Below, in pieces: positions 6,357-64,000 of a stretch of 64,000 bases of DNA. The stretch is from contig CM097884.1 of NCBI GenBank assembly GCA_044892505.1, positions 47,864,001-47,928,000 on the forward strand, given 5' to 3'. Position 1 is the first letter of the stretch, and each line of letters starts with the position of its first letter. This stretch comes from Schmidtea nova (lineage: Eukaryota). The notes beneath the pieces were generated by a model, which worked only from the letters and a program-made list of their open reading frames with translations, did not search any database and had not been told where the DNA came from. The translations under genes were made by a program, and so were the position numbers.

Positions 6357-6564
6357 TCTCAAAGGTCAAAATCCTTAATAAATATTTCACTTATATTATA
6401 ACAAAGAAAACGCATTTTATAGAAATTAACATCTTTTATTAAAAATAATCTAAAATTCGTCTGATTGCAGCTCATTTGGATCTGGATCTGGAAAATCATC
6501 AGGATCATCATCATCTGGATTATCATCTAGTTCATCAATAATGACATTGATTCCTAAATAATGT

Positions 6565-7085
6565 CCGAAAGCGAAACTTTTATTTTTCCCCACCCATTGA
6601 CGTTTCTCATCATTGTTACTTAATGATGTTTTATAATTTTTAAAAGTAAACAACTGATGATTTTTAGTTCTTTTCCGTGTTTGAGGTACATTAAAAACGC
6701 GATTATTTTTATAACAATAAATATAAGATATATGTTTTGTTTCAGTTCCAGGCAATGAAATCCCTTAGGATTTATTACTTTCCTCGTCACCTAAAAGACT
6801 ATAGCATTTTGGACGCAAGAAAACCCATTCCCTATATCCAAGACCCTTACTTTCATTTTTAAACTTATCTATCACAAAGTCAAAGTTTCTTGAATATAGG
6901 GGATAGTTAGGATCGTAGTTTGAAGTATCCAGAAGACAATCAGATATCATAGCTGTTAAAAGATTACTTAATTTACAATTTTTAATTTCAAGAAAGAAAG
7001 AGTCAGTGTTGCCAGCAACAATGTCAATCTTACAATTAAAAAGTTCACTATATTTTTGTAATTCTAGATATTGAAGTTGATACAT
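6565..7085 (-). pseudogene. Protein-primed DNA polymerase B, C-terminal fragment
   Basis: AGNTDSFF (YxDTDS motif), LLDTSNYDPNYPLYS, KFKNE, FLRPKCYSL, then SLSNNDEKR...AFGHY, typical of Polinton pPolB; frameshift near 6760. Confidence 0.88.
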
Positions 7086-7162
7086 CCGTGGTTAAGATAG
7101 ATCTAGAACCGTTTGACCGATATAACTATGTCTTTCTAAACAAATCAAATCTTTATTCAATT

Positions 7163-7460
7163 TTATTCATCTTTATTGCAATGTTGATCTAGTTGATGTT
7201 TCGCAATTTCATAACTTTTATTAAAATTATTGATTATAAATAGACGACTGCATGTTCTATTTTCAATTCTTTTGTAATCAATCTTACATTGACTATAAAA
7301 TGGAAATGTGTTGTACACAAATGTAAAATATTGTAATGCAACTTCCCAATTACCATCTAAATAAATTAGATTTTGAAGATTGACCATGAATTTATTGGCT
7401 TGATTATCTGGATGTATTAGTGGACAGCTATTACTTGGTAATATAGTATAAAAATTCACT
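7163..7460 (-). pseudogene. Polinton minor capsid (penton-like) protein, N-terminal fragment
   Basis: FYTILPSNSCPLIHPDNQANKF...IYLDGNWEVAL matches the FYxxLPSN...WEVxL start of Polinton minor capsid proteins; paralogous to 28980 and 30691. Confidence 0.8.
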
Positions 7461-8435
7461 TTACTAAATCTTTTGATGATATCCATGATGAGTTTTGATA
7501 TCCATGCCACTTTACATAGTATTGTTTATCCTTACCCACCGTTTTAGTTTTTAGTATTTTCTGAATTCTAAATACAGTTGGTGGCGGAATAACTTGTAGT
7601 TCTTGCTCATAAAATTTCCCACTGACTTCATTATTGTCAGAGTCAGAAATAACATACATTACAGGATATTGACTAGTATTAATTTTCGATATTTGAAATA
7701 ACTTATCACTCCAATTACTAACAAAATTCTTTATGAATGGCGAAGCACTAATTTTACTAATTTGAACATGATCAATAATTTTATATTTCGGTTTCTTTAA
7801 TGTTTTTACTTGACGAGAAATCTTTCCAGTATTTTCTGATGAAACATCAACAGGTCTCAATCCATTTATACCTAGATGTGGAGAATGATAATAACTATGA
7901 ATTATTTTCGGCAATACATTGACCCATGTTTTATTACCCTGGTATACAAAATACTTTTTGAGATGATCTCGTAATGTTCGATTAAATCGTTTAGCATGAG
8001 GTGTTTTGAATTGAGTGAATACAGAGTAATAATTAATCCCGGCCAAAACTTCTTTAACTTTATTATTGTAAAATTCTTTACCTAAATTTATAATTAAAAA
8101 TGTATATAATATTTTATATTCTTACCCAAATCAGTTTGTAAATTCTTGGGATGTCCATCTGCAAATAATGTTTTGATTGCTATTGCCATTTTTATTTTAT
8201 TGCCATTTCATGAGCTGACTTTTTTTGATTGGAACAGTACGTGAAAATCTACTGAAGACATCGATACATGTCAAAATATATTTATATCCCTGGTTAGTTT
8301 TTGAATATGGAATCATTTCCATCAAATTCATTTGCCAAAAATCATTAATACCATATGTTTTAGATTCTCTTGTTGGAAATCTTTTCAACATTGATTTGTT
8401 TAGACTGTATGCTAGTTGACCTGATAACCACTTTT
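7456..8435 (-). pseudogene. Polinton retroviral-type integrase with chromodomain, split by a 44-nt intron (8082-8125)
   Basis: WQMNLMEM, YILTCIDVFSRF, LQTDLG^KEFYN, FNRTL, GKFYEQELQ, QYYVKWHGY. Frameshift near 8210; N-terminus truncated. Confidence 0.92.
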
Positions 8436-8886
8436 AATAATTATTTTTGTCACCAGTTTTTATTAAAGAAATAATTTGTACAAATACGATACTAATGCAA
8501 TACTAATGCAATGTGAATGCATGAAAATTACAGAAATGAGTCATGCATGTACACATATAAGTCACAGAGGTTATTTGCAACACACACACACTTATATGTA
8601 GGTAATGAATCATGACGCACACCAATATGCAGTACAGATGCATGAATTTGATTGGTTACATCGACATTTTTAACCTTATAAATACGAAGGCGAAACAAGA
8701 CAATTTCATAATTTCTTTTAAAATGCAATCAAATAAATCAGTTTTTGGAACATTATCGAATGTATTAAAAGAAACTAGCCCTATTAAGACTGAAAAAAAC
8801 AATTATATCAATAAAGCCATCTCAACTGAAAAAAAGATTCTTCTGTCATAGCCAATAAAATCAAGAATGACGTTAAGCCAGTTCAA

Positions 8887-9186
8887 ATGTACCACGACTT
8901 TAAAATATATTTCTTGGTAGACGAAATACCATTTAGATTCTCTTATCCGGTCAAGCTATCAAAATCATTATATACAAACCTAATCGGTCATCTGAATAAA
9001 GAAGATGTTATTGTAGTAAATAAAGTTTTATCGAAAATCAATAAAAATTTATTCTGCAAAGAAACTATATTTATTAACAATCGAAACACTCGTTTTCATG
9101 ACGCGTTCCAATCAATTGATTTCAGGGATAATGAACAATGGTTTATAAATATTACAATTCAAGGTTACAATTCAAAGTTTACTTGA
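8887..9186 (+). CDS. Hypothetical protein inside Polinton copy 1 (with 8612-8851, possibly one disrupted accessory gene)
   Basis: 99-aa open frame between the integrase and the terminal repeat; no recognisable motif. Confidence 0.3.
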   Translation: MYHDFKIYFLVDEIPFRFSYPVKLSKSLYTNLIGHLNKEDVIVVNKVLSKINKNLFCKETIFINNRNTRFHDAFQSIDFRDNEQWFINITIQGYNSKFT

Positions 9187-9275
9187 GATTTTTAACTTGT
9201 GTATTTTTAATAAATGTTTAGAATTATTCGGTGTTTTTATTTAGTACTATTTTGACCTGTGAGAGTTTTTAAGAT

Positions 9276-9291
9276 TATTATAATTATTATA

Positions 9292-9360
<69 letters not shown>
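9276..9360. repeat. (ATT)n microsatellite at the inner edge of the Polinton terminal repeat
   Basis: Seen directly; mirrored by (TAA)n at ~5645-5661. Confidence 0.95.
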
Positions 9361-9361
<1 letters not shown>

Positions 9362-10310
9362 GACCTAGTTAATTTAACTTTAAATATTTTTTTTGCATAT
9401 GACCTACTTAATTTGTCTTTAAATTAAATTTTTTCATATATGACCTACTTTATTTGATTTTAATTATATAATTTTTCATATATAAAGTACCTAATTTGTC
9501 TTTTAATATTTAATTTTTCATATATGACCTACTTAATTTTGCAGTAAATAAAAATATTTTCATATAAAAAGTACTTACTTTGTCTTTAAATATTTAATTT
9601 TTCATATATGACCTACTTTATTTAAACTAAATATTTTCATATGACCTACTTTTTTTACCTTAAATAAAATATGTTCATTTATGATCTATTTATTTGACCT
9701 TAAATTGTCCTTAAATTATTTTAAATTAAATAATTATTTTTTCATAATAAAGTACTAAATTTGACTTTAATAATATCTAATTTTTCATATACAAAGTACC
9801 TGATTTGACTTTAAATAAAAATATTTTTATATATAAAGTACTTAATTTTGCCTTAAATAAAAATATTTTCATAAATGACCTACTTAATTTGATAATAAAT
9901 ATTTAATTTCTCATATATGACTTACTTTATTTGGCATTAAATTGTCTTTAAATTATAATATTTTAATTTTTCATATATGACCTACTTATTTTAAATTAAA
10001 TAATAATATTTGCATATATGACCTACTTAATTTTACTTTAAATATTTAATTTTCATATATAAAGTATCTAATCTGACTTTAAATAAAATATTTAAATATA
10101 TGACCTACTTTATTTGACCTTAAATTCACCTTTAAAAATGACCCTAAAATCTCCTTAAATCGACCTTGACCTACTTTTTTACCTTAAAGTGTCCTAAAAC
10201 CATAAATTTGACCTTAAATTCACCTAAAAGTGTCCTCTAACGAAAGTTTTGACCTTTAATTCACCTTAAGCGAAAAATTTGACCTTAAAATGACCTTAAT
10301 TTGATCTACA
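9355..10310. repeat. Subterminal tandem array (~35-45 bp units, core ATATGACCTACTT) of the Polinton TIR
   Basis: Many imperfect units; an inverted partial copy at 5560-5665. Confidence 0.8.
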
Positions 10311-10444
10311 TAAAAAATAAAATTTTCTAGGGGGGCCTTGACCTATATATGACGGGGATACATCCTACTACTACTTAATCATCATTATTAATATTGTATG
10401 ATCATTGTCGTGATGATTATTACTACTAATTTTTAGTATTATTT

Positions 10445-26611: not shown

Positions 26612-26689
26612 TTTTAAATAATTAAACAAATATAAACAATACTAATAATTAATTAATTAATTAAGAAATGGAATTAAGAAATGATGCCG

Positions 26690-27260
26690 TTTATCAAAAG
26701 GTTGGCCCATTGGGAGTGGGAAAACATTATTTGTATGTTCATTATTACAATCTAACATGTTTAAATAGATATTCAATAACATTTATTGGCACAAGGGAGT
26801 CGATGAAGAAAATGCATTGACTCAAGATCAGTTTTGTAAATTATAAATAACCATTATAAAATGGTTTGATAAAAATTGATCATCTAGATTACAAGTTGAT
26901 GTTATAATTATCGATGATTTGCATCAGGAAGCCAATAAAGAAAAGAATTTCAACAATTTATTTACAAATATAAGTAGACACTTGGGTGTTACAGTTATTT
27001 ACATTACTCAAAATTTATTCCATCAAGGTGGTAGTTATAGAACCCGAAATTTAAATGTACAATACTTGGTTATATTCAAAAATCTTTGAGATGTAACAAC
27101 TATTTATTTTATTGTAAGACATCCTTACCTTAATGATAGAAAATGTTTACTTGATTCATTTCAAGACGCAACTAAAATTCCACACGGATATTTTTTTTCG
27201 ACTATACACAACAATGTCCTGATGATTTTCGTATAAGACCTGACATTTTCAATAAAAAGG
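26690..27260 (+). pseudogene. A32-like genome-packaging ATPase
   Basis: Walker A GSGKT at ~26713-26727; Walker B IIIDDL; LFTNISRHLGVTVIYITQNLFHQG; RNLNVQYLVIFKN. Confidence 0.9.
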
Positions 27261-27479
27261 TATAACAGTTTATAAACAAAAATGAAATTGTAAAATTAAT
27301 TTATTAAAATGTCATTAAAAAACGTCATTGTTCAACCCGTTATTGGTAAACCTGATAAACAACAAGAAATATTAAACAAGGTTAAATAGATGTCATTAAA
27401 GAAGATTTCATTAAAAAAAGAAGACACAAATCAAGAAATCGATAAAAAGAAGAAGAAATGAATTACATTATAAGCAAAA

Positions 27480-27790
27480 CAAAGTTGCAAAAATTTGATA
27501 ATAATTAAAATTGAACGCAGTGTACCTTATTTTAATGCCTTGATAAAGGCATTAATAAACGTATGACAATTTTACAGGCTTTTCCCCCATTTGTTATTGA
27601 TGATTTTCTTGAAGTTATTGTTAATGTAATTTGTGGTAATGTAAATATTAGTAAAGCCAAAAAATATCTTTAATCTCTCATCAATACTAAAAATCGTGAT
27701 CTTCTATGTAGAGTTATTTATAAACAAAATGGTGGTTTCTTATGTACATTAATTTCAATAGTATTATCAGCTATAAGTGCATTTCATTGT
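27480..27790 (+). pseudogene. Small conserved Polinton protein upstream of the integrase (core-protein-like)
   Basis: EVIVNVICGNV and YKQNGGFLCTLISIVLSAI resemble the QxGGFL-hydrophobic motif of small Polinton proteins. Confidence 0.6.
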
Positions 27791-27886
27791 TAAATTCATA
27801 AATTGGTGCTAAAGTTTCAATAGATATTAACATCTTGTTGTGACAATGAAGGAAATATTATCCAAAAAGAGCAAACCAAAAATAAA

Positions 27887-28973
27887 TTGAAAAAGATTTG
27901 GACAAACCCAAAAGATCCTGGTTGGTTTGCTGGGGTAAATAAAATTTTAAAAAGAGTAAATAATTCAAAGAAAGATACACAAAAATGGTTATCTGATCAA
28001 TTGGCATATAGTTTAAATAAACCAATGTTTAAAAGATTTCCTACACGAAGTTATAAAACAATTGGTGTTGATGATTTATGGCAAATGGATTTAATGGAAA
28101 TGATACCTTTTTCAAAATTGAATAAAGAAAACAAGTATATTTTGATTGTTATTGATGTATTTAGGCGCTATGCACGTGCAGCTCCAGCAAAATCTAAATC
28201 TGCAAATGAAATGGCTGAAGCTATAAAAAACTTTATTTGTAGATGGGCAACCTCAAAATTTGCAAACTGATTTGGATAAGATTTTAATTTAATTTTAATT
28301 AATTTTAATTTAATTTTAATTTAATTTTAATTAATTTTAATTTTATTCTAGGTAAAGAATTTCATAATAGTAAAGTTAAAGAAATTATCAAGGTTATTAA
28401 TCATTACTTGGTATTTTCATAATTCAATGCAGCTGTTGTTGAAAAATTCAATCGAACTCTGAGAGATAAATTGAAAAGATACTTTTTTTTAAGGAAATAA
28501 ATACATGTTTTGCGTAAATTGATTTATAGTAATAATTATTCTCAACGTAAAAAAATACAGGGAAAGTGACCAATTGATGTTTATCCTACAAATAATATGA
28601 ATAGATAGTTATCTGAACAAATAAAATCAATAACTAAAAAACCGAAATACAGAGTAGGGGATCATATTAGAATCAGTAAAATCAATGGATTCCCTTTTAG
28701 AATTTTGACAATAATTGGAGCGATGAAGTTTATCAAATTTTGAAAATCTATAAAAATCAGAAACCGGTCATGTATTTTATTACCGATTCTGAAAAAAAAT
28801 GATATCAGTGGAAAATTCTATGAACAAGAGTTACAAGTCATTCCAGTCCCATCAGTATTCAGAATTCAAAAGATTTAAAAACCAAAAATGATTGGAAATA
28901 TAAACAATATTATGTTCAACGGCATGGATATGAAAAACCAACTTGGATATCTAGAAACCAATTGATTAAATAA
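27887..28973 (+). pseudogene. Polinton integrase with chromodomain, with a degenerate intron at 28276-28351
   Basis: LWQMDLMEM, YILIVIDVF, QTDLG^KEFHN, VVEKFNRTLRD, GKFYEQELQ; clearly homologous to 7456-8435. Confidence 0.92.
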
Positions 28974-28979
28974 ATATTA

Positions 28980-30697
28980 TGAAAGAAAACTAGTTTTCTA
29001 TGATTTTGCCTATTAATGCGTGTTCTCTTATTTATTTTAATAATGAAGCTAGTAATTATAATGTAGAATTTCAAGATCCGATTTATTTAAAAAATAATGA
29101 CGATATGAAAGTTTCTTTGATTGAATTTACTTTTGTGTATAATTTGTTCCCGTATTATAGTAATTCTTTTATTCAAATTGTAAAAGAAATTTAAGAAATC
29201 AATTATTTGAGAATCAAAAATGTAAGTAATGTATTCGAAGTTTTAAATTCTCAACCTAGTTCAGATACTGATGTATTTATTGAAAAATATGAAAATTTAT
29301 TGTTTGTTTGCCCACATGTTCCATTTAAAATTATATTTCCAGATCTCGAACATGTAAAATGTTATGGATTGGATAGTTAAACAATTATTAGTGAAAATGA
29401 TCATTGTCGATTAAAATTATTAATAATAATAATTATTGTGAATAGTTAAGGTCAATTAAGGGTTATGTTGTGATGAAATTTATTTATGATAAAGTATATG
29501 TTATTTATTAGTATATATTATTTATGTAGTGATTGTTTGTATTGGAAAAATGAAGGGCCCAGCCGAGTCACCAGTAAAAGTGTGTCGGGACAACTTGGGT
29601 GTATGTTGTGTACGTGCTTGTGGGTGTGAGTGTGTGCTTGCCTGTGTAAGAATGCAGAATCACAATTTTTATTATAAATAACAACTTTTAATTTAAATAA
29701 CAACTTTTATTATAAATAACAACACGTACTCGCGATTTTGCTGGGGATTAATATTTCATTCGTTAAATAAAAATCTTTTTCTTTTTGATTTCAATCGGTT
29801 GATAATTTGTTTTTGTATCTTCGAGAATTTTATAATTCGTTTCTTTAATTATTTTTTCTATTTGTCTTGGTTAATTGTCACTTTAATAATTCGTTAATTT
29901 CATATTTTCATTTCATATCTCCACTCTTTCATAATAATCGATTTCTTTTATTTTTGCGTTTGCAATTTCTATCGTCTGATACTTTTATGAAACTTTTACT
30001 GATATTTTCTTTAATAAATTCTTTATAGGCTTCTTTAAAACTGGCTAAATTAATTTAGTAAGCTGAAGGCATCTTTTAAAATCATTTAAATTTTTTTAAT
30101 CAATTTTCTTTAATTTTTCAAATTCATATAGTAATTTATATTACTATAGGAATTGATTTTTTATTTTCATAATTTTAATTTATTATGTTATTTTTTTAAG
30201 TTTTAAGTTAACCATAAAAAAGTGATAATAATAAACACAAGCATCACACAAAACACAAATAATTAACAACTAAAGGGATTACTATGTTCCCAAAACACAA
30301 TTTATCATAAAAATTGACATTTACTATAATAGATTATGACATTAAGACCGTTAATTATCATTATTTTCAAAAAGAATTATTCATTACGACATTACCTAAA
30401 TTGAAAGGATATTTAATGAAAATAAATCTATCTCCATTCAAAGAAATGAAACTTGTCAATAATGAATTGGTTATTGGCGATGTACGAGTTCCCCTGCTAA
30501 AATGAATTTGGATAAAAAAAATATGACTAGGGTGAAGTTGTATAAATTGAAATAAAAAACCCAATGTATTTGCCAATTTCAACATCAACTATAAACAACA
30601 TTGAAATCAATATTCGTGATGACAGTGGAAAATTAATTAAATTTTTAAAAGAAACAAACTTACATTTGACTCAGCATTTTCGTAAAATAAATGAATA
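28980..30697 (+). pseudogene. Minor capsid/penton-like gene 1, interrupted by unrelated sequence (~29520-30300)
   Basis: N-terminus ILPINAC...VSLIEFTFVYN; C-terminus VIGDVRVPLLK...IEINIRDDSGK...HFRKINE*. Confidence 0.72.
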
Positions 30698-31703
30698 AAA
30701 AAGATTTTTATGTTAATTTACCAAGTAATTCTTGCCCATTGACCCATCCTAATAAAAAAGCTGGAATATTTAATGTGGAATATCAAAATCCAATATATTT
30801 GGATGGTAGTTAAGAAGTTGCTCTTATGGAGTTTACTTTTGTGTACAATGAATTTCCATTTTATAATAGTTCAAGAATAAAATTTACTAGAAGCAATTTA
30901 CATTCCAGTTATGAATATTTCAATTTTAACAAAGAAAAGAATGAATATGAAATTAGTCACGATTCTAATTATTATTTGATGTACATTGACGGCCATATTT
31001 TAAGTGTAAATTTTAAATATTTTCCATTTCAAATAATATTCGATAGTGTTGAACAATCTCAAAAATTATGATTTAAAGAAAAAGCTGTGAATTTTGATAA
31101 TGAATTAAATAAAATCGTAATTAATAATAAAGAATTTGTTGATACTATACGATTTACTATAACTTATAATTACTCGGTTGAATAAACTGATAAATTTAAA
31201 GAAGATTTGATAATAAATGGTCTTACTCAATTATCGGATCAAATTGAGAGTTTTTATCCTCATCCATTTAAATTGATTGATATTAAAGAAAGAAAATTAA
31301 CTAAATTAATTCTTGAAGATGATATCAATTGTGTTAAATTTAGTAGAAATTTGACCAATTCATTAGTATTAGTAGATCAAGAATTTATAGAGAAAATTAT
31401 TGATGGCTTATATTATCCACAAGTCCTATATTTTCATCTGCAAATTTTCATCTATATGGATATAATTCAACCAATTCTTGTTAGTGACATGTCAGTTCCC
31501 CTATTGAAATGTATTTGGGTTGAAAAACATAGAAATGAAGATTAAGTACAAATTGTTGTGAAAATACAATGTACTTGCCTGTCAGTTCCACATATATAAA
31601 CAATATAGAAATCAATATTCATGACGACACTGGAAAAATAGTTAAATTTACAAAAGAAGGCAAGACTTACTTGACATTACATTTCCATAAAATAAATGAA
31701 TAA
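30691..31703 (+). pseudogene. Minor capsid/penton-like gene 2
   Basis: FYVNLPSNSCP...EVALMEFTFVYN...YMDIIQPILVSDMSVPLLK...IEINIHDDTGK...HFHKINE*; internal stops. Confidence 0.8.
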
Positions 31704-31990
31704 TACAAATATTATCAGTTTCTATAGCAACATTCAATCAGGTCGAGAATTAGCATATCTTGTAGATAAACAGTATAGTACTGGTTGGTTGAAAACAATA
31801 GGAAGATTTGCATTACCAATTCTCAGACATTGGAAATTTCGGTATGAAAACTGCCAATGGCGTGTTAAATAGTAATTCAAAATTTTTACCTGCACTAAAG
31901 TCCAGTGCCATTTCTGAAATTAAAGGTTGGTTACCCGATGTAATTCATCATTTGCCACAAGTTTTTAATAGTGACTGATTTGTTTAACGA
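31696..31990 (+). pseudogene. Small Polinton virion/core-like protein
   Basis: IQSGRELAY...QYSTGWLKTIGRFALPILR resembles the QxGxG...RxAxPxL proteins found upstream of Polinton major capsid genes. Confidence 0.55.
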
Positions 31991-32050
31991 AAATAAAATT
32001 AAACGAAATGGCAGAATTCTTAAGCGTAAAAAAATATGAAAAAACATCGA

Positions 32051-32636
32051 CCCGGCCTACCAAAGGTCTCCAGTCAGTAGTTATTTACATATTGCAGCTT
32101 ATAATGATCATGTGCAGTACAAATATGAACAGCAATAGGAACAAATGTCACCAACACCTTCAACATGCTGCATGCGCACATGTACACATACGCACTCACA
32201 CACAGACATTTACAGAATATGACTTCTCACACCAGGCACACATCAGTGATATCAGTGAGTCATGTTAATGAAGGATTGTCACTTTCTTAGAATTTGACTA
32301 CTCACACTAAAAGCACAACAGTGATAACAGTGAGTTCGCAAAAAGACTCCCATTGCCCGTAACGCCTTCGAACTGGAAACACATCTGCATGAGGAAGGGT
32401 CACACATCTCCACTGATTCACTGGCAAAAGTGGTCGATACAAGGCCTAAACGAGTGCGCCTTGTTATCCAGATGAAAGGTAATATAATGAAGTACTAACC
32501 CTCTCAGCACTACAGACATTCAGTATTCGTGTGTGTTTGTGACATTTGTTCCCCTTCCTGTTCATTAGAAGCGGTTCATTATAAACAGCAATATGTAAAT
32601 AACTGCCTGACTGGAGACTTTTGGTAGGCCGGGGTA
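32051..32636 (+). mobile_element. Internally deleted Tc1 derivative of the 43887-45331 family
   Basis: Same TIRs (CCCGGCCTACCAAA...TTTGGTAGGCCGGGGTA); left part matches ~43890-44160, right part ~45041-45331. Confidence 0.92.
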
Positions 32637-32676
32637 TAAACAAAAGAATGAAAAGATATGGAACAATATTTGAAAA

Positions 32677-33480
32677 ATGATTAACGCAAAATCTGAATTA
32701 TGTGTTTTGAACAGACCATCTCTACAAGAAGTGATTGAACAAGGTGCATTTGAAGATTTTTACCAAACAAATTTCAATACAGATCCTGGAACATCATCTA
32801 TTCAATTTTACATCAACGGATCTCAGACTGAATATTTAGATTTGAATGATATTTAACTATCTCTTCAGGTCAAAGTTGTAAACAAATCTAGTGAAAATTT
32901 GCGAATGGATGCTGATGTTACTCCCAATAATTTCTTTTTCAAACTCTTTTAAAAGAAGCTGTATAAATGTTTAATTCTACAAAGGTTGAAGGAGGAAATG
33001 ATACATTTACACACAAAGCCATGATTGAAACTATTTTCAACTACAATAATGATACAAAACACACATCTTTAACTCCAATGGGATAAAATGAACATGACCT
33101 TACTAGAAAACATGGATTGCAAAATCAAAGCCATTTTCAATTTGTTCTCAATTACATTTCTATTTCATGGAAGAACCCAAGTATTTATTACCAGATTTTA
33201 GTGTTCAAATTAAATTGACAAGATTAAACCTAGCCTATAGTTTAACATGCACAAAAATTGAACCTAAAATTGAATTATTAGAGGCAAAATTAATGGTTAG
33301 AAGAGTTCGAGTTGAACCATCAGTTTTGGCTGGGCATCAAATTGGACTTGGTACAAGAAATGCAATTTATCCAATAAAAAATATGGAAGTTGTAGAATTT
33401 TCATTGCCAATGGGTTCTTCATCATTTTAAAATGAACAAATCTTTGATTAGGGGCCATTACCAAACTTTATTCTTGTTGC
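32677..33480 (+). pseudogene. Polinton major capsid (double jelly-roll) protein, 3'-truncated
   Basis: AKSELCVL, EYLDLND, KAMIETIFNY, YLLPDFSVQIKLTR, AKLMVRRVRVEPSVL, AIYPIKNMEV. Confidence 0.88.
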
Positions 33481-41240: not shown

Positions 41241-43031
41241 CTAATTGATTTGCTGAAGAGCTATGTTAAATTTAAGAACGTCTATCAACTTCATTCCATA
41301 TTCACTTTTCAGATTTCCGTATAGAAAATCTGGAGATTTTGAATTCAAGTCTACCATTGACATAATCAACCGACCATCAAACGAAGAGAATTTAATTTTA
41401 AGATGTTCTAAATTGTGTTTCACCAGCCATTTTTCAACGTCTTTAGTGGTCCATTTGTTAATTTCCGAACAAGTATCAATTGTAATTGCGTTAGCGTCTC
41501 GACTTTCTAAATGTGTTGCTTCGTTTGCAATGGCAGTTTTCGGCACAATTAAAGCTTCAGTGTCATTCATGAAAAGCGTTATGTTATTTAAAAGTCCAGA
41601 AAAAGACTCGTTGAAGTTTCGTCGGTCACTGAATTCATAATACGTCTTGCTACCCATTATGATTCCCAGCCAACTCATTGGTTTATATTTAAATTCGACA
41701 ATTAAAGGAACAATTGGTTTCTTTAAGGAAAAGGCATATTCGGCTTCAGTGCGACAATTAGGACTTGTTCGATATGATTCCGATATCGCCATTACAAAGA
41801 TTTGAGAGTTCTCAATGCCGTCTGCCATGGCTTCAAGGGTAGAACCTTTCATCTGGTCTACATCGATCCAGACATTAATTTTTGACTTTAACAATTCATC
41901 TCGAATCGACAAAACTGTCGCCTTATTAGCCCAAGAATAGCTGAGAAACACATCGAATTTCCATTTTTCTTTAGCTGCTTTCAACTTCGATATTTGTGCC
42001 GACTTCAGCCTCTGTTTAGATTGACCTTTACTGTCGATAAGCCACGAGATTCCTTCGAAGCATTTTTTAATTTTAGATGACGGATGGCTTTCGAAAGGTC
42101 TTATCAAAGAACTTAACTTAAAGTCGATAATCAAAGTCTGTTTGATTTCTTTATCAAAGCAGAGATTCCACAAAGTCCCGAGACACTTCTCAATGTCATC
42201 ATCGCAACTCGGATTTGCAATTATATCAATTATTAATTGAATGCCATTTTCATTGACAATAGACTTCTTCATGTTGTCATTCGCTGAAAGGCATTTCAGG
42301 CCGTTCACCAGCTCCCAAATAGCGAATCCATTATTGCGTTTTTTTTTGTTTTCCATGGCACTTCTGATTTGACCGATTAGCAAATTAATGGTGTTTTTTC
42401 CTTCTTCAAGCAAATGCAACTCATTTTCCTTTACCAAACAAGCCAATGTCAAAATAGATACCAAACCTATGAAATCCGAATCATTCATGTGAACTAATTC
42501 CACTAGTCCTTCTTTCAAGTCTTGAGACTGAAAGATTCCTTCATAGCCAGGTACTCGAACGACATTGTGGATGATGCTTATAGAGCTTTTCATCACATAA
42601 TAAATGTTTGTACTTTTCAAGTTCTGGATGTAAGGTTTGTGGAGCACATTTGTGATTAACAGCTGAGGTAGTTTTGTGTTGATTATACTATTGGCTATTT
42701 CTTGGGTCGTGTCACAATAGTTCCAGAGACCATTCAAAGCATAATATGTAGAAAACCAAATCGTATCGTTGTTGAAAAATCCAACATCGTTAAATTTACA
42801 AATAACTTCTGCTATAATGTTTACATAATCCAGTCTCATTAATTCAGTAGTTATAGCTTTTAAATGAGTTTTGAGATCAAAATATGATTGAGAAAGATTT
42901 TGAAAAATGTGGTAATCTGAAATCTCAGTTAATGGATCTTTTATTTGACTTATTTTTTCTAGTGTTTCCTTTATGAAGTTCACAGCTTGTTGTGCTGAAA
43001 AAGATTTGTCGTAATATGGCATAGCTGTGGC
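41241..43031 (-). CDS. ARM-repeat / TIR / SAM-like protein (5' end lost in the gap)
   Basis: About 595 uninterrupted codons: ARM-like helices (ALNGLWNY, LKCLSANDNMK, LGTLWNLCFD), TIR (FDVFLSYSW, VWIDVDQM, YRTSPNCRTEAEYA, KPIVPL, WLGII), C-terminal SAM-like WTTKDVEKWL. Confidence 0.9.
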   Translation of the reverse strand, partial: ATAMPYYDKSFSAQQAVNFIKETLEKISQIKDPLTEISDYHIFQNLSQSYFDLKTHLKAITTELMRLDYVNIIAEVICKFNDVGFFNNDTIWFSTYYALNGLWNYCDTTQEIANSIINTKLPQLLITNVLHKPYIQNLKSTNIYYVMKSSISIIHNVVRVPGYEGIFQSQDLKEGLVELVHMNDSDFIGLVSILTLACLVKENELHLLEEGKNTINLLIGQIRSAMENKKKRNNGFAIWELVNGLKCLSANDNMKKSIVNENGIQLIIDIIANPSCDDDIEKCLGTLWNLCFDKEIKQTLIIDFKLSSLIRPFESHPSSKIKKCFEGISWLIDSKGQSKQRLKSAQISKLKAAKEKWKFDVFLSYSWANKATVLSIRDELLKSKINVWIDVDQMKGSTLEAMADGIENSQIFVMAISESYRTSPNCRTEAEYAFSLKKPIVPLIVEFKYKPMSWLGIIMGSKTYYEFSDRRNFNESFSGLLNNITLFMNDTEALIVPKTAIANEATHLESRDANAITIDTCSEINKWTTKDVEKWLVKHNLEHLKIKFSSFDGRLIMSMVDLNSKSPDFLYGNLKSEYGMKLIDVLKFNIALQQIN

Positions 43032-43174
43032 NNNNNNNNNNNNNNNNNNNNNNNNNNNNNNNNNNNNNNNNNNNNNNNNNNNNNNNNNNNNNNNNNNNNN
43101 NNNNNNNNNNNNNNNNNNNNNNNNNNNNNNNNNNNNNNNNNNNNNNNNNNNNNNNNNNNNNNNNNNNNNNNNNN
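43032..43174. other. Assembly gap (Ns)
   Basis: Run of N. Confidence 1.
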
Positions 43175-43886
43175 GAATTTTATTATATAGCAATAATAAA
43201 AAGATAAATTTCCGTCTGTATAAAACGCAATATCAGGAAATAAATAATTAATAATGGCTGTGTCCAAATATCGTGTAACTAATAAAAAAATTATTTTACA
43301 AAATTATTTAATACATTATTTGTTTTAATTTCCTTTGCTGTATACAAACGGAAATTTATAAGCAGAGAAATTTTACGTGACGATTAAGAGACTTTTGTGT
43401 GTAAGTTGGGCAGGTGTAAATAGATCCGGATGTATTTATTATCCATTTATTTAGCTGACACGTGCATCTGGCTGCATGTCACCTCGAATGCTTTACGCAT
43501 TTATTTGCATTCGAATTGAAAATGGTGTATACCATTTATATTCGGCTGTAGTTTCAATTAATAAAACAATTCATTTACAAGGAAATAAATTAGATATTCA
43601 AAGTAAAAGATTAGTCATTAGTTATCGAACTCCAGTCAGTAAATCACACCCATTATTTTTTACGAGTATTTTTCATTTAATCATATAAATAAATGGTGTG
43701 AAATTTGATAGAAGAAAGTTTAAATATGAGTAGAAACTTGAAATTCAAATACCCTTATTAAATAATATTATTGTGTAAATAATTTGATTTTTGATTTATA
43801 TTAAGTGTTATTAACTTTTCATTTTTGACTGCTCAAAGTTTTTTTATCACGATTATTTACCTTTTAATTTAATAGTTCATTGAACA

Positions 43887-55255: not shown

Positions 55256-56050
55256 TTATTGAATTGGTTGGATCTTCGACTGGAATAGTTTGAATGACTC
55301 GGTATTGATCAACTGTTTCTTGTCATCTTCTCTTCTGGATTGTTTGGAGATCATGTTGTTCATCATTCTTGTGGCGGTCAAGCCTAACCATATTATACCA
55401 CAGATTCCGATTATTAGCAAAAAGTTAAGGATGATCAGACAGATATCGAGAATTCGTTTGGATGATAGGAGGGATATTCTGCACTTGTCTCGGTCTTGAT
55501 TGTTATCCGGTTTCGATATTTCGTTTATGTGATCGTGGATTTTATTCCTAGATGCCAGGTTTTCGAAATAAGCCTTTCTCAGTTGTTGTGCCGTTTGGTT
55601 TCCTACTTCGGAAATCTGCTGGGATAGGTTATGATGAATTTGCCGGATTTGTTTCAGACATTTCGGACTTGATGAATTTATCGTTAGCTGATCGATTAAC
55701 TTGCCTACATTCATTTTAAGTTCTTTGGTGAGACGTTTTATTGCGTCACGGGTTTCTCGATCACTATCAAAAATATCCTCGAATGTATCTCTGATCACTA
55801 AATCGGCTAATATTATCCTTGCTATTCTCTTGAGACCTGAAATTTCATCATTTTGATTGAAAAGGGTATTCTGAATTTCGACTTTGGCTTGCTCAATCTT
55901 TTCGGATAGTTGTTTGTTGTTAGAGATTTCAAATGGTTCTTTATTATCTGGTTGATTTGGGTTTAATTGGCTTGATTTCTGGGTTTCTTCGAGATGACAA
56001 TAAATTGTTGTGATCATGGCGATTAAGAAAACTTCTCGGTACGATTTCAT
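55256..56050 (-). CDS. 264-aa predicted type I membrane protein (signal peptide, coiled coil, TM)
   Basis: Hydrophobic N-terminus VFLIAMITTIYC, helical ectodomain, TM ILDICLIILNFLLIIGICGIIWLGL, basic tail; intact and intronless. Confidence 0.8.
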   Translation of the reverse strand: MKSYREVFLIAMITTIYCHLEETQKSSQLNPNQPDNKEPFEISNNKQLSEKIEQAKVEIQNTLFNQNDEISGLKRIARIILADLVIRDTFEDIFDSDRETRDAIKRLTKELKMNVGKLIDQLTINSSSPKCLKQIRQIHHNLSQQISEVGNQTAQQLRKAYFENLASRNKIHDHINEISKPDNNQDRDKCRISLLSSKRILDICLIILNFLLIIGICGIIWLGLTATRMMNNMISKQSRREDDKKQLINTESFKLFQSKIQPIQ

Positions 56051-56216
56051 TGTTGATTTTTGTGTTTCTAATAGAAAGAAATTGAATAATGACGATAGAC
56101 AATAATTTTTTTCTATTTACAAGGGCGTTACGAATTTTACAGAGGGTTATGATTTGGATGATGATGAAATATTGTTAAAGATGAGAATGAGTTGTCGAAA
56201 GGGGGATCGAATCGTA

Positions 56217-57041
56217 TTATTGTTTGTAGAAGTAATTCATCTGCACCGAGGTTGTAGATGTCTCAGGATTAGGCTGTTCTGGAACTGGATCTTCAAATAT
56301 TGATCTTAGGAAATTTTCTGACGGGTTGTTGTCCTCATGGGTAATTCGTTTGATTGTATTCGACTGGATTTTCGCTTTCTCTAATTTTATTTTCTCTAAT
56401 CCAATTGATGCAACAATGCTAAGGATCATTATGACTGCGAAAAGACTGATGCCTTGTAGAACGACTGTGATGGCTGCTTCTCGGTCTCTGACGTCTTCGT
56501 TTGTTGATCCTTGTTTAGGGATAATCTCTTTCTGCTTTTCGGATGATATCAATTGTTTTATAATTCTCTCGGTCTGATGAAGTTGCATTTTCAGTTTTTG
56601 ATTTAACTCTTCTGTAAAACTCGATCTTTCTTCGTTAACTTCATCTTTATTATTTAGAGATTTTTCTATTAGCTTGCTCAATTTCTTCAGTTCGGTTGTC
56701 AACTGTTTGAAAGATGATTGGTTTTCTAGTTGTTTCTTTAGTTGAAGATTGTTTCTTTTGGTTAAGGAGATTTGTAGTTGGATTAATTGTTGAGTTTCAT
56801 TTCTCAATTGTTTAAGGATGGTGATTGAATCTTCTCTGGATTTAGGACATTGTTGACATTGTAGTTGGATTTGCTGACACTCCTCATTTCTGATGCTACA
56901 AATTTCTTGATAGCTTACGCAAATGCTATCGGATCTTCTAAATGGATGGCTTGCTTGACATTGACTCAATGCTTCTTCGCTTCGGCAGTTTGTAATTATA
57001 AGTATCATGATGGTTGTTGTGATCCTCATTAGATTGCTCAT
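56217..57041 (-). CDS. 274-aa predicted type I membrane protein (signal peptide, Cys-rich region, coiled coil, TM)
   Basis: ITTTIMILIITNC leader, a cluster of Cys, long heptad region, TM AAITVVLQGISLFAVIMILSIVASIGL. Confidence 0.8.
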   Translation of the reverse strand: MSNLMRITTTIMILIITNCRSEEALSQCQASHPFRRSDSICVSYQEICSIRNEECQQIQLQCQQCPKSREDSITILKQLRNETQQLIQLQISLTKRNNLQLKKQLENQSSFKQLTTELKKLSKLIEKSLNNKDEVNEERSSFTEELNQKLKMQLHQTERIIKQLISSEKQKEIIPKQGSTNEDVRDREAAITVVLQGISLFAVIMILSIVASIGLEKIKLEKAKIQSNTIKRITHEDNNPSENFLRSIFEDPVPEQPNPETSTTSVQMNYFYKQ

Positions 57042-57136
57042 TTTCTATAGATTTATAGATTCAAATTGGTTTAATGATTTTTCAGATTTTCTCTTTTATA
57101 TCTTTACAGGGATATTTACATGAGTTTATATATATT

Positions 57137-57712
57137 TTATTCTTTCGTCTCTTCATTTAACTTTAACGGACTTTCTGGCTTCCAGTTACCCATTTTTACA
57201 ATCTCGTCTGCTTCTTTTCGCCTTTGTTCTTTGAGGACGTAATTTTCTGCCGTTTTGATTTCTACAGCTTTCTTTGCTTTGAACGTATCAAATTTTGCTT
57301 CTATGATTTCACTTTTCAACTTTATTATCTGTTTCTCTCTTTTTATAATCTTTTTCTGTTTGTTCTTCAATGATCGTTGTAATGACTCGATCTTAATTCT
57401 CCTTTTATTATCAGTGTTCTGTTCACTGCTTATTTCCCTTTTGAGTCTGTCAATCTCTTGCTTCTGTCTGTCGCAATATTTTTGAGTGAGACCATTTTGT
57501 TGGCGAAATAGATAATTTTCTCGCTTGATTATTTCCATCGTCTCGCACTTTTGTTCCATTTGTGCGATATATTTTCTCTCTTTGCTCATTACTTCCTTCA
57601 ATTGGTCTATTTGGTCTTGATAATATTGCTCTGTTGCTCTTTTCCATTTTTTGAATCTTTCTTTTGATATCGTTTGTTGTTCTGGTTCTGATCTTTGCTT
57701 CAATAGTCTCAT
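57137..57712 (-). CDS. 191-aa coiled-coil protein
   Basis: Intact K/E/Q-rich ORF in the same orientation as its neighbours. Confidence 0.7.
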   Translation of the reverse strand: MRLLKQRSEPEQQTISKERFKKWKRATEQYYQDQIDQLKEVMSKERKYIAQMEQKCETMEIIKRENYLFRQQNGLTQKYCDRQKQEIDRLKREISSEQNTDNKRRIKIESLQRSLKNKQKKIIKREKQIIKLKSEIIEAKFDTFKAKKAVEIKTAENYVLKEQRRKEADEIVKMGNWKPESPLKLNEETKE

Positions 57713-58002
57713 TTTCTATAATTTGAATTTTCATAACTCTTTTCTACAGTTTTATTAATTTTGTTTTTGTTTTTATCATTTTTATCATTTTTATCATTTT
57801 TATCATTTTCTAATTTTTATTTGTTTTTCATTTTTTTTTTTTTTTTTTTTTTTCTAATTTTTATTGAATTTTTATTTTTTCTGCTTTTTATTTAATTTTT
57901 TGGATATATTTTACAACTTTTTCTTTTTACATTTCTTTACAACGTTTTTCTTTTTACACTACATTTCAATTTCTTTTTACACTTTACATTCACTTTTATT
58001 AT

Positions 58003-59550
58003 TTATACAAACGTCTCTTCAATTTCTCCGAACCCTTCATCTTCGATTTGAGGATTTTCTTGCTCCAAATGTACAGGTTGTATTGGTGTTGGATATAGTG
58101 GCCATAGAATTATTGGAGGTTGATTTTGTAGGCTCTGAACTCTTTCTCGCAAAGTTCTTGAGATTTCTATCTCTTCATCTAGCAAATATGTCATATAATC
58201 GAGTTCTTCACTCAGCTGTTCCTTTTCTATCTCGAGCTCTCTCGTATTTTCCATATTTTTCAACCTTTCAATCTCTCTTTCATAGTTTTGGCGGTTTTCT
58301 TCCAAACTTTGGATAGCCATTTCAATCTCATACTGCGATTGCTGGATCGCTTTCTCACATTCGGCCTTTGTTTCTTCTATCTGCCGTCGCTGGTGTTGAA
58401 TGACAATATCTTTATGAGTATTTGTTCCTCGATATCCGTTGACTTCACGGTTTGCAATAGTCAATTCTCTTGTCAGTTCTTCAATACTTCGATCATCCAT
58501 ATTCTTCTGTTGATCATATTGCCTATTTGCAAATTCCAGATATTTGATACGAGCTTCTTGATTCCTGGTAAATTTCATTCTCCTTTGATTCCATTCGGTT
58601 TTTAATTGAATTTGCCGTCTTAATTCTTTGTTTTCTATCTCTTGCTTTTCTGCATTTTCACACAATTCTGCTTCATTTATTGACATCAGCTTCTTTGGGA
58701 ATTCTCGTAGTTTGTCTCGAGTTCTTTTCCAGGTCTTTTTCCATGTTCTTGCTTGTTCTATTAGCCACTTTATTTGATGCTTTATACTTCTTTCTCTGAA
58801 CTGTCCGCTCGTTTTCAACTGGAATATTTCTTTTCTGAGTTTCTCCGTTTCCTCATGACGTATGTCTGCATACCAATAACATTCCTCTTTCAGAGCCTCG
58901 ATTTGAACGTCTCTCCGTCTTAGTAATTCTTCCTGTAGCATTTTTCTGTGTCGAGCCATTTCCAATAAATCTTGGTGTTCTTGTTTCCATTTTCTAGCCT
59001 CTGCTTTAACTTTTCTAATGATCTTTTCTTGTTCGCTTTCAGGCTGGATTTCTCTCGTTCTCGTTTTAGGTTTCTTTTGAGGTTGTCCTCTCAAGGCAAA
59101 TGCTTCATCTCGACACTTTTCCCATTTCTTTTTCATGGCTTCATATCTATTTCTTTCACTTTCTAGTTGCTGCTGATAGAATCTTATGGAGTTGTCATAC
59201 CTTGTTTCGGTATCTCTTTTATAAGTTTCGAGCTCATCTTTTCTCAATCTTGCTTGATTTTTTAACGGTACCAACTTTCGTTGTTCGTGCTCGAGTTTTC
59301 TCTCCATTTCTTTGTACTCTCGTTTATAATTTTCTAGTTCAGCTTCGATATGCGTCTTATCGTTTATTATCTTTCGCAGTTCCTCGTTTTCCTCTTTTAT
59401 TTTGTTGATCTCTTGGGTTCGTTTTTCAATCATTTTAACGTTCTCTTGGATGGCTTCCATTCTTTGTTCATAATTTCTCATTTGATTTAGTTGCTCTTGT
59501 CTTTTGGCCATCTCCTGATCTAGGATGTCTATCAATTGTTGTATATTCAT
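58003..59550 (-). CDS. 515-aa long coiled-coil protein
   Basis: Long intact E/R/K/Q-rich ORF with a Pro-rich acidic tail. Confidence 0.8.
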   Translation of the reverse strand: MNIQQLIDILDQEMAKRQEQLNQMRNYEQRMEAIQENVKMIEKRTQEINKIKEENEELRKIINDKTHIEAELENYKREYKEMERKLEHEQRKLVPLKNQARLRKDELETYKRDTETRYDNSIRFYQQQLESERNRYEAMKKKWEKCRDEAFALRGQPQKKPKTRTREIQPESEQEKIIRKVKAEARKWKQEHQDLLEMARHRKMLQEELLRRRDVQIEALKEECYWYADIRHEETEKLRKEIFQLKTSGQFRERSIKHQIKWLIEQARTWKKTWKRTRDKLREFPKKLMSINEAELCENAEKQEIENKELRRQIQLKTEWNQRRMKFTRNQEARIKYLEFANRQYDQQKNMDDRSIEELTRELTIANREVNGYRGTNTHKDIVIQHQRRQIEETKAECEKAIQQSQYEIEMAIQSLEENRQNYEREIERLKNMENTRELEIEKEQLSEELDYMTYLLDEEIEISRTLRERVQSLQNQPPIILWPLYPTPIQPVHLEQENPQIEDEGFGEIEETFV

Positions 59551-59687
59551 TCTGAAATAATAATAACATGGGTAATTTCCTTTTGTTTATACATTTTTTG
59601 TTGCTCATGCTTATAAAATAATACTTGTATACATCGATTGAATTTAAAATCTTTACAATTTATTTACAAAGTTGTTTGATTGGATTA

Positions 59688-60115
59688 TTGATCGGCATAA
59701 CGGAGATATAATAAATTTCTGTTTACACTTTCTGTTAACAAAGCTTGTTCGTTTTTCCATTGTGCATAGGCTTGATTCAACATCCTGCTTAATAATTCAC
59801 ATTGCGTTTTCCATGATAACTCTTGTGTCATTGTCTGCTGATAAACCATCGGAGCTGATATTGATTGAGTCTGGCTATTTGTTTGTTGTTGATTTAATAC
59901 GAATGTCGTTGAATTGGGTTCATGGTTTCATCAAATAGTGGAATTTCGACTTGGTATATCAGGTTTCTATCGTCAATTGTTGGATTTTGCGTTTCATTTT
60001 CGATTACTGGGGTTTGTAGTGACCCTTCTCTTTCTCGTATATTGGTATCTCCTGGAAACGTTGGAACAGATGTTTGATAACTTTGACTCTCGTTGTTCGG
60101 ATTCATTTCTGTCAA
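59688..60115 (-). CDS. Small ORF 59894-60115 with a probable frameshifted continuation to 59688
   Basis: A second frame (PNSTTFVLNQQQ...YLRYADQ*) stays open from ~59920 to 59688. Confidence 0.45.
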
Positions 60116-60256
60116 TAATTACACAATATTATCATTTGTTTTTCCCAGTTTTGAGGTATTCATTTTTTGGATTTTTAAATTTTTATTATACAAATATATT
60201 CTACTTTTATAATACAATATAATTTTATACACTATATACACTGTTCCTTCCACTGG

Positions 60257-63200
60257 TTACTCTAACAACTTGCGTTTCGACGACACTCTGATGTTCTCAT
60301 CTGGCTCGTCGGTTAATATGACTTTTATGTCTTCTTGGGTGACTTTTGAACCATTATGTGTTACTATCTGACATACGAGTGTTCTAAACATTTCTTGTGA
60401 TACTTTCTTTTTGTAAACACAGATTTTATATTTTGTTTCTCGTTTTAATCCATTTATTCGGATTTCTCCTCCTTCTGCTCGTTGACATTTGACTGGATTA
60501 TCTCCTTTAATTTGCAATTTGACGCTACTCCAACATGCTTCTTCATTATCTGCTCCTTGTATTAATACTTGTACTGGTTTTCTCTTGTCATCCGCTTCCG
60601 TTCCTTTCAATGCTGACAGCATCAATATCAGTAATATTATGTCTTTTATTCGAGTTTTATGTAGACATGCTGTTCGTTTTTCATAATTTGAAGTTTCTTG
60701 CTTGGGTTCATCACTTTTGTTCCCAATTTCCTCGTTATTGCTTTTTCCATCATCTTTCTCGTCTTTGTCATTGTTTCTGTTGATACTTTCATTGTCATCT
60801 TTCTTTGTTTTGTTGTTGTTATTCTCTTCATCTTCATCGTCAGGCTCATTGTGATCATTAGCACCACCCTCGGTTCTGATTAAAATGTCGTCCTCGACAT
60901 TTATTAATTTTATTATTTCCTCATATCTTTTAGCTATTTCATCTGCTTCGGCTTTTATATTTGCTCTCTTGGTTATTTCATCTTTGGCGTTGTTCCAGCT
61001 TCGGTGAATTCTGCTTTCTTTTATATTTTCTTTCCATATGATGACTTGCTGATATAATTCATGTCTTTTAGATCCAATTCTTTCTTTTTCTTTTTTGTTG
61101 TTCGTAAACCTGAAATCAGGTCTTTGCAGCAATGCTTTAATCGTTTTACACATTTTCCATTTTCTTTTCATGGCTCTTTTCATTATCATATTTTCACCGT
61201 CTTCAAATCTGTCATTGACATTTATCACTCCTTCGTGCGTAACTGGATGTAACCATTTAATCATTTTTGCTGTTGTTTCGTCGGCATCTTTGTTCACTGC
61301 ATTTACTAATGGATTTGGATCTGAACTGAGCACTTCAATATCTTCTTCTGTAGCATTTGACATAATATATTTGACTATTTGATGGTTATTTGCTTGCACT
61401 GCATAAGATAACACCGTTTCATTTTTATCATCTCTTTCTTTAAAACTTGATCCGGTTCTCATCAGTTCTGCTATGAGTTTCTTGGATCCTCCTTTTTCAA
61501 TTGCTATCATCAAGGGTGTTTGATCTTTCCAGTTTTTTGTGTTGGTATGTTGCTTGCACTTTTCCATGAGTTTTATGATTTCAAATATTCTCTGTTCATT
61601 CCCACTTTTTATTGCGTGATATAATGGTATCTCATCTTTAAAACTGGCAATTGTAAAAAGTATTGGTAATCTTTCTTTTATGGTATTCATCGCTTCTGTC
61701 GTTTCATTTCCTTTGGCATATTCCTCAACCATTAAGCTTACTCCTCCCAATATTTCAAATAGATTTTTACTTTTTGACCATTCTGGCATAATTTCTTTGG
61801 TAATCTCAATGATCAATTCCATCTTTTTGCGGTGCTCCATTTTTACATCGTCAACTATCTTAGGTTGTTCAGATATTGTTGTTGGCTGATTTACTTTTCT
61901 GCTCACAGTTAATATACGGTGTAGCCAATCGTCATTTTTATTCTCTCGAAACATACATACTTGTCCTTTTCTGGTCATTTCTTGATTTGATTGTTCTGTC
62001 GCTGTTTCTCTTGTGCAATCCTCTTCAATTTGGTGTTTCAACTTCATCGTATTCAAATCAATTACAGATCCTTTTAACAGTTTTGGTATCAAGTCTGTTC
62101 CAATAATACATGATGCACCCAGTTGTTTTATTACTGTCAAATAAGTTGATATTTTTACTTTTCTGTATTCGATGTCTGTCCATATCTTTCCAACGATATT
62201 GACAGATTCTTTGCTGCATGTTATTACGTCTACTGATGTTTTCTCGATGCATAACCGTAACATTTCTGGTATCATATCGATATCTATTGCTGATATATTT
62301 GCGCCAGTATCAATCATCGCGTCTACTTTTACGCCATTAACTTCGATGTTAATTGTAAGTATTGGTCCAGCTGGAGTTTTCATCATTGCAATTATCGTTG
62401 TTTCGGGATTATCTTCACCTCTTGCTTTTCTGGTCAACTCGCTTCCTGAAATTTTATCAACAGTTAATTTATTACTTGTTTCGATTTGTATCGGGGTTAT
62501 TCCGATTTCTATATCATCATTCAGTGATTCTCCATCATATTTCAAGTGAAATGGTAAGTTAAATGGTAATCTCTCTTTTATCTCTTTGATCTTTGTTGTT
62601 AATGGTACATTCATCTTTATTTCTTCTAAACTCGGAAACTGAATTTTCAATCTGCACATCTGTGGATCATCGCTTGTTTGTTCCAGTTGTTTCCATTTTC
62701 TTATGATGTCATTAAATTGTGTTGAATACCAAGGGCATAAACGTCTGCATTTCTCGATTTCTCTCACTATCAATCTCATGTTTGATATATTTGCACTATT
62801 TTTTATAACCCATTTTAGTAATTCAGTTGTTGTTTCACATTGATTTCCTGCACTCTTGCTTAGGTTACTGATTAATCGTTCGGTCTTTGACGTTTCTGTT
62901 TGTCTTGATCTTTCGAGCTTCGCTGATTTCCTTTTTTCTTCCGACTTTTGATTCATTTTCGTCATTTCTTCTATGGTAATTGTTAACAATCTTTGTGCCA
63001 CTTCTTCTAATTTGATTGTCGTAGATTCATCCCATTTTTCGTCCATGTTACATATGTCATCATCGCTTCTTCTTTCTCTTCTTTTTCGGTTATATTTCTC
63101 CACAAACTTCTTCTTTTCTTCTCCCTCCATATCTTTTACTGAAAATTCATATATATTTCCCTTTCTTTCCATTTCAACGTCTGATAATTCGGTTATCATT

Positions 63201-63319: not shown

Positions 63320-64000
63320 TTCTTTCTGAAAATCGGCTACAAACTTTCAAATGTTATGGGTTTTACTTCTTTATTTATCAGCTTTATTTCTTTGTAATTT
63401 CCTTTCGTCGTTTTTTAATAGATTTGACTCTTTATCTTTCGACTTTACGAACTTGGTTGGTTTGGTAGTATTATCAATTTGCGTTTAATATCGATTGCTG
63501 ATCTCTCGTTTATCTTCAATTGGATCTTCTTTGATTTATTTTCTTTTACTTCTTTCCTTTTCAATTAGACTTCTTTTTCTTCTTTTCTTCTATATATACC
63601 TCTTCAATAACTGATTGATTTGACTATCTCTTGGCTTGGCTTTGATCTGTTGGACAATCTAAATAAAAATATCGCTTCTTCATCGACGCCATTTACCCCC
63701 CTTTTATTCTGAGCTCAGATTTTAAATTATCTATATCTCGTAATAATTATCTATATGGTCGTATCAATTATCTATACCCTGATAATAATAATAATAATAA
63801 TAACAATAACAATAACTATACTAATACTATAATAACAGTAGGATCCTGTCGACTCGTTTTCATATTCATCTCGGCATTCGAGGTTAAAAAAAAATATCTT
63901 GTTCGTTATCTATTCATGGCCATTATTTTATTTCCTAAGTATTTCTCAATGTCTTTTATCTGCTCTTTTTAACGGTTTGTATTACTACACCTTAAGTATT

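Follow-up and report, generated by a model that had tools for sequence, protein, structure and literature searches.

Does the 44-nt insert that interrupts a Polinton integrase gene in the window (the whole 64-kb stretch of DNA analyzed here) represent a spliceosomal intron, and if so, how did it come to lie in an element whose core genes are generally described as intronless? The original prediction read the insert as a GT-AG intron beside a catalytic Asp of the integrase; its coordinates, its ends, and the restoration of the T-D-L-G-K-E-F motif upon its removal are all confirmed (Table 1). On the minus strand, the junction reads ACT GAT TTG G / GTAAG...TTTAG (8125 to 8082) / GT AAA GAA TTT, and the full junction pattern has one match in the window and none in 100 shuffles. 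Only the first base of the motif's Gly codon precedes the insert. In an alignment with foamy-virus integrase, the Asp two residues upstream of the split Gly, which we take to be the second catalytic Asp of the integrase, coincides with that enzyme's H-S-D-Q-G motif. The AT content of the insert is 91%, versus about 70% in the coding DNA on either side. Removal restores the local motif, but not the whole gene, which is truncated and frameshifted in this copy. Further short introns (43-49 nt) had also been proposed for the window, but the junction rule finds the present insert alone within it.

The Polinton copy in the window is a dead remnant, internally deleted to about 4 kb, with one terminal repeat ending at 10372. 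Its integrase exon 2 matches the chromodomain family PF00385 (E 1e-4) and has 91% amino-acid identity to that of a full-length copy. The next gene, named by gene order and presumably encoding the minor capsid/penton protein, survives as a remnant that adjoins the polymerase-like fragment through the internal deletion. Because this copy is broken, the intron question concerns the family and not the window copy. Other features of the window can be recorded here. Positions 1-27700 form one unit of an about 34-kb tandem segmental duplication (98-99.6% identity) with G000:C3:47824001-47857437, where G000 is the 1.25-Gb genome containing the window; the duplication also doubles the remnant Polinton (L002). 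Very long open frames at 55256-63346 (minus), which encode ankyrin repeats together with an aspartyl protease of retroviral type, resemble the Burro giant LTR retroelements of planarians as these are described in the part of PMC6431247 consulted; the likeness suggests that the host is probably a planarian flatworm. At 41241-43232 (minus), an intronless 663-codon frame encodes a TIR domain (PF13676, E 1.9e-21) in addition to ARM-like repeats.

Table 1. Polinton-related features of the window
Feature	Position	Strand	Remarks
Predicted 44-nt GT-AG phase-1 intron	8082..8125	minus	in integrase Gly codon, T-D-L-G-K-E-F motif
Integrase exon 2: remaining catalytic core and C-terminal chromodomain	7456..8081	minus	open to stop codon
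Integrase exon 1 remnant	8126..8435	minus	about 32 N-terminal codons missing; frameshifted upstream of intron
5' remnant of gene after integrase (likely minor capsid/penton)	7223..7525	minus	
Likely DNA polymerase gene fragment	6472..7159	minus	blastn, 92% identical to full-length copy
Fragment of unnamed Polinton ORF near terminal repeat	8436..9170	plus	
Terminal inverted repeat with minisatellite	9175..10372	none	ends in the family's CTACTACT terminus
Further Polinton copy, decayed, from a different family	26616-33446	plus	
Lengthened 76-nt AT-rich insert of decayed Polinton, same integrase site	28276..28351	plus	acceptor AG present; donor non-canonical

Elsewhere in G000, intact relatives of this copy carry the same insert. 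With the downstream exon as query, a protein search yielded 14,868 candidates; scoring covered 150 of them and returned 30 loci. A GT-AG insert is present in 29 of these 30, and the remaining locus has an insert with an altered acceptor. Four full-length copies examined measure 16.3-17.1 kb and have terminal repeats, AGTAGT ends, and 6-bp target duplications, and open exons flank the intron in both of the two full-length copies with frames listed. The original prediction had been exposed to the finding of intact family members without the insert; full-length members have the intron. The terminal features of a Polinton are present in all six full-length copies examined; for the window copy, only one end was located. 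The retroviral-type DDE integrase of the full-length copies scores over the cut-off with PF00665 and weakly with PF00385 (chromodomain), and matches foamy-virus integrase at E 7e-6. Also over their cut-offs are a packaging ATPase (Pox_A32-type, PF04665, E 3e-6) and an adenovirus-type cysteine protease (Peptidase_C5, PF00770, E 1.6e-5), while the model of the major capsid protein is a double jelly roll (pLDDT 66), for which Foldseek finds the capsids of iridovirus, mavirus, Sputnik, and PBCV-1 as matches (E about 1e-12). The element is a Polinton/Maverick and the gene a Polinton integrase, as originally predicted; the polymerase label comes from motif and gene context only. With capsid, ATPase, and protease present, a Ginger transposon is ruled out. 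Two further points of gene content were observed: a TATA-binding-protein-like ORF (PF00352, E 2.5e-16; L052:1727-2197, minus) lies head to head with the ATPase gene in full-length copies and is also found in five metagenome relatives (loci L126, L135, L136, L143, and L151), and some families have two tandem penton-like genes, not one (L084:1618-3742, L093, L124, L125, L136, and L154).

The abundance of the family allows the insert to be examined as a population. With both exon ends fixed and 36-56 free bases between them, the pattern has 10,527 matches in G000, of which 10,241 (97.3%) remain when GT and AG are required, and reversed controls have none; a separate, similar junction pattern has 10,111 matches, again against none for the reversed pattern. 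A sequencing artefact or the decay of a single copy is ruled out by the 10,000 copies. Among the first 100 listed matches of that similar pattern, the inserts are 40-48 nt long and 79 are not multiples of three. All of 35 distinct introns end in TAG and 34 begin with GTA; the pattern itself imposes the GT and AG, but the adjoining A and T were free. Pairwise identity among the 35 is 70% in the interiors (64% when shuffled) versus 85% for the next 66 exon bases. U2-type GT...AG ends with donor and acceptor consensus are present at the integrase site, and the intron exactly interrupts a frame that relatives have contiguous. Kept GT and AG, divergent interiors, and open exons together form the pattern expected under selection for splicing, and the integrase insert is likely an ordinary intron of an amplified Polinton clade. 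With lengths of 37-48 nt, the Polinton introns lie at the lower end of the size range of nine candidate host introns (45-99 nt), or beneath it; these nine were picked heuristically from 17 myosin loci.

The integrase gene is not the only interrupted one. The protease frame has no usable start; upstream of it stand an ATG and two further bases, followed by 37-47 AT-rich bases in all that begin with GTAAG and end in AG, which puts this insert two bases into the second codon. The pattern has 10,230 matches in G000, and the unspliced frame meets a stop at codon 3 in 13 of the 13 listed. The same intron is found in all seven metagenome loci with a protease (five distinct, with integrases 56-62% identical). 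Database proteases of the clade often have intron-like residues at their start, and the three most distant begin with a plain Met. Protease P0124 (64% identical, on a 507-base contig) has a contiguous start, which may reflect either a transcript already spliced or a relative that has no intron; G000 had no matches to a narrow motif for a protease start without intron, a motif that fits part of the clade only. Integrase junctions in G000 number about 10,500 and protease junctions about 10,200, a density of 8.4 per Mb. Roughly one tenth of the genome may be Polinton DNA, provided that many copies are full length.

A third gene that is probably interrupted is a 1,300-codon polymerase-like frame with motifs that by eye resemble PolB motifs A-C; searches of Pfam, PHROGs, and PDB sequences matched this frame to no polymerase, and its single-sequence fold was unusable. 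In 12 of 13 loci, an AG, taken as a conserved acceptor, occupies the same place in this gene, before a conserved Tyr/Cys/His motif and 19-21 codons ahead of the first Met. Upstream of the frame in one locus (L052:8584-9172, plus) there are three AT-rich GT-AG stretches of 49, 47, and 191 nt, the removal of which yields phase-consistent, stop-free exons; the last of them seems to interrupt a zinc-finger-like motif within a Cys codon, and the upstream exons differ among families. No intron was seen in the capsid, penton-like, and ATPase genes of the full-length copies and loci examined.

An intronless counterpart exists in the same genome. This 14.2-kb palindromic sister family, represented by L104 (G000:C1:17243516-17257751) and L107 (a similar copy near C1:53508088), has two 6.85-kb arms, each with ATPase, integrase, penton-like, and major capsid genes, and one central protease gene; polymerase is absent, and the copies have 6-bp target duplications. 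Its 340-aa integrase is open straight across the intron site, with no insert, while the protease intron is present. The contiguous integrase pattern has 177 matches in G000, mostly from this family (84 of the first 100 listed have a 24-mer of the sister family). The coexistence of these open intronless integrase frames makes complementation in trans conceivable, such that the insert would go unspliced, the interrupted integrase would be dead, and the sister family's integrase would have driven the amplification. We consider this highly improbable. Both integrase exons stay conserved, with open frames, between families whose proteins diverge by 20-30%, and GT and AG are kept while intron interiors drift. 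The terminal sequences, moreover, differ between the intron-bearing families and the sister family, and the sister family has the protease intron too.

Relatives outside the intron-bearing families likewise have the integrase site uninterrupted. Among 120 database relatives, a set biased by intron-blind gene calling, the motif is contiguous in 114; of the remaining six, five begin only beyond the motif and one seems to be chimeric. A DNA-level scan of metagenomes is free of that bias because its search words came from the downstream exon: it found 37 loci, and all 32 that span the site are contiguous, although many come from few data sets and are thus not independent. No integrase relatives were found among viral contigs. 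For a tree restricted to the downstream exon, 83 rows out of 140 were used (21 intron-bearing, 7 intronless from G000, and 55 database proteins), the rows dropped including one intron-bearing row that was too short and five intronless rows from G000. The original prediction had proposed mapping the intron onto the phylogeny, and this mapping places the 21 intron-bearing rows in one clade (100/96) that is surrounded by intronless relatives, the state changing once on the tree. The absence of the insert from the sister family and from 32 of 32 metagenome relatives points to a gain in the intron-bearing lineage, and on these comparisons the integrase intron is derived. Placement of six intronless G000 rows inside the intron clade is not rejected by the AU test (p 0.36), so one gain plus one loss would also fit the sister family; as for precise loss, each of 17 intronless G000 loci is at least as close to another intronless locus as to any intron-bearing family. 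A single gain in the ancestor of the clade is likely, with the sister family either never having had the intron or having lost one. The protease intron is the older of the two, being common to elements at about 50-60% protein identity, and the integrase intron is younger; with the former in distant relatives and the latter in one clade, there are at least two layers of introns.

How the integrase intron arose can be narrowed. Delivery by an introner transposon, as reported in the part of PMC11957031 consulted for dinoflagellate Polinton-like elements, seems very unlikely here: the insert is at one site in every copy and follows the element's own tree, which indicates that it was inherited and not inserted repeatedly, and by eye the integrase, protease, and polymerase introns are alike only in AT richness and splice signals. 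The original prediction had instead suggested intron gain by tandem duplication of an exon segment containing G/GTAA, an origin that would be compatible with host splicing and a single gain. The window family does have GGTAA in both the donor and the start of exon 2, and some intronless copies carry TTAGGTAAG at the site, a ready-made proto-splice site. For each intron, the 5' part was set against the beginning of exon 2 and the 3' part against the last bases of exon 1, ungapped and with splice signals excluded, and none of the 35 distinct introns exceeds shuffles in likeness to its flanking exons at p<0.05 (lowest 0.066, mean z 0.05); moreover, exon 2 starts with GT in only 17 of the 35. The GGTAA likeness arises because the donor consensus meets Gly-Lys codons. 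Since the interiors are nearly saturated, this result denies support to duplication without disproving it, and we regard that origin as doubtful.

We therefore favor, with a probability of about 0.8 and on the strength of sequence comparison, the reading that the inserts in the integrase, protease, and polymerase-like genes are introns spliced by the host, that the integrase intron was gained once in the ancestor of the clade, and that its removal is probably constitutive. The element's genes would be transcribed in the nucleus by the host, and splicing would yield full integrase, protease, and polymerase, while an unspliced integrase message would usually terminate at a stop inside the intron. 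As Polintons are copied as DNA, a spliceable insert would pass to each daughter copy and so be inherited instead of being purged. Regulation like that of the P-element intron was also envisaged in the original prediction. On such a reading, and by analogy with intron 3 of that element, the intron would be retained in some tissues, giving a truncated or decayed product, and spliced in germ or stem cells. In 22 of 23 introns examined, retention would halt translation just past the second catalytic Asp, the introns occur in three enzyme genes and were seen in no capsid, ATPase, or other late-type gene, and the position of the protease intron is kept across about 50% protein divergence. Yet stops are expected anyway in DNA of 90% AT, the 42-nt intron of one family (L084) reads through in frame, and the intronless sister family multiplied too. 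The integrase intron interiors, being barely above shuffles in likeness, display no conserved silencer. Such a switch is accordingly, in our judgment, unlikely. A broader proposal, that all three enzymes depend on splicing while the capsid and packaging genes stay free of introns, with the ancient protease intron acting as a conserved on/off control of virion maturation and the younger integrase intron gating transposition in the clade of about 10,000 copies, is one we would entertain tentatively, as possible but hardly probable.

Host splicing, if it takes place as we propose, has consequences for how such elements are annotated. According to the part of PMC10120064 consulted, prokaryotic gene calling was chosen because endogenous viruses “do not contain introns”; where surveys make this assumption and use prokaryotic gene finders, an intron-bearing clade would be mis-annotated, its integrase, protease, and polymerase-like genes appearing broken. 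Several database proteases of the clade begin with residues derived from the intron. The introns also imply nuclear transcription and use of the host spliceosome. Taken alone, the integrase intron would be a modest finding; its weight comes from its inheritance through ∼10,000 copies, from the control that the intronless sister family provides, and from the older protease intron that distant relatives have as well. Through these copies, the sister family, and the relatives outside the genome, intron gain in a virus-like element is here sampled unusually well, and intron gain, intron loss, and splicing control could be tested with RNA data of an ordinary kind.

Several known systems offer points of comparison. 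Retention of intron 3 in the Drosophila P element truncates the transposase and is regulated, and adenovirus E2B messages have a spliced start exon, such that the first enzyme codons lie on a small upstream exon. The integrase intron is like the former in that retention would truncate the product, and the protease intron like the latter in its predicted small start exon; regulation has been shown in those systems, and no homology is claimed. For Polintons themselves, our search of open-access papers found none on inherited introns in animal core genes. Term look-ups for a spliceosomal intron in Polinton core genes likewise found none in the searched parts of 10.1101/2023.08.22.554363, PMC8502044, PMC11296320, PMC12220804, PMC12721341, PMC4028283, and PMC5718144, and the portion consulted of a report that Mavericks have expanded in planarian genomes (10.64898/2025.12.11.693146) does not mention introns.

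Introns in integrase-type transposase genes are found in Ginger1, the genes of which have one to four canonical introns, some of them conserved in position, according to the pages consulted of PMC2836005; Ginger1 elements, however, are small, move by cut and paste, and lack capsid, ATPase, and polymerase, whereas the elements described here have the Polinton gene set. The dinoflagellate maverick-polinton-like elements likewise have introns of spliceosomal type within Polinton-like elements, but those are mobile introners that mostly entered the proviruses after integration (PMC11957031, in part), whereas the introns here are at fixed sites and inherited, the protease intron being present in distant relatives. 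Closest in gene content are the vertebrate and nematode Polintons, which as far as the consulted portions of PMC8097293 and 10.1101/2022.07.12.499685 describe them have the same retroviral-type chromodomain integrase, packaging ATPase, adenovirus-type protease, double jelly-roll capsid, terminal inverted repeats, and target duplications of 6 bp. Intact vertebrate Mavericks are stated to have ORFs that lack introns, which is said there to agree with Kapitonov and Jurka 2006 (PMC8097293), and nematode Polintons to have intronless core genes, with introns in cargo genes only (10.1101/2022.07.12.499685), which bears out the premise of the original prediction that Polinton core genes are generally described as intronless. 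The present clade departs from that description in its integrase, protease, and polymerase-like genes: where the vertebrate and nematode core genes are intronless, here there are inherited GT-AG introns in about 10,000 copies.
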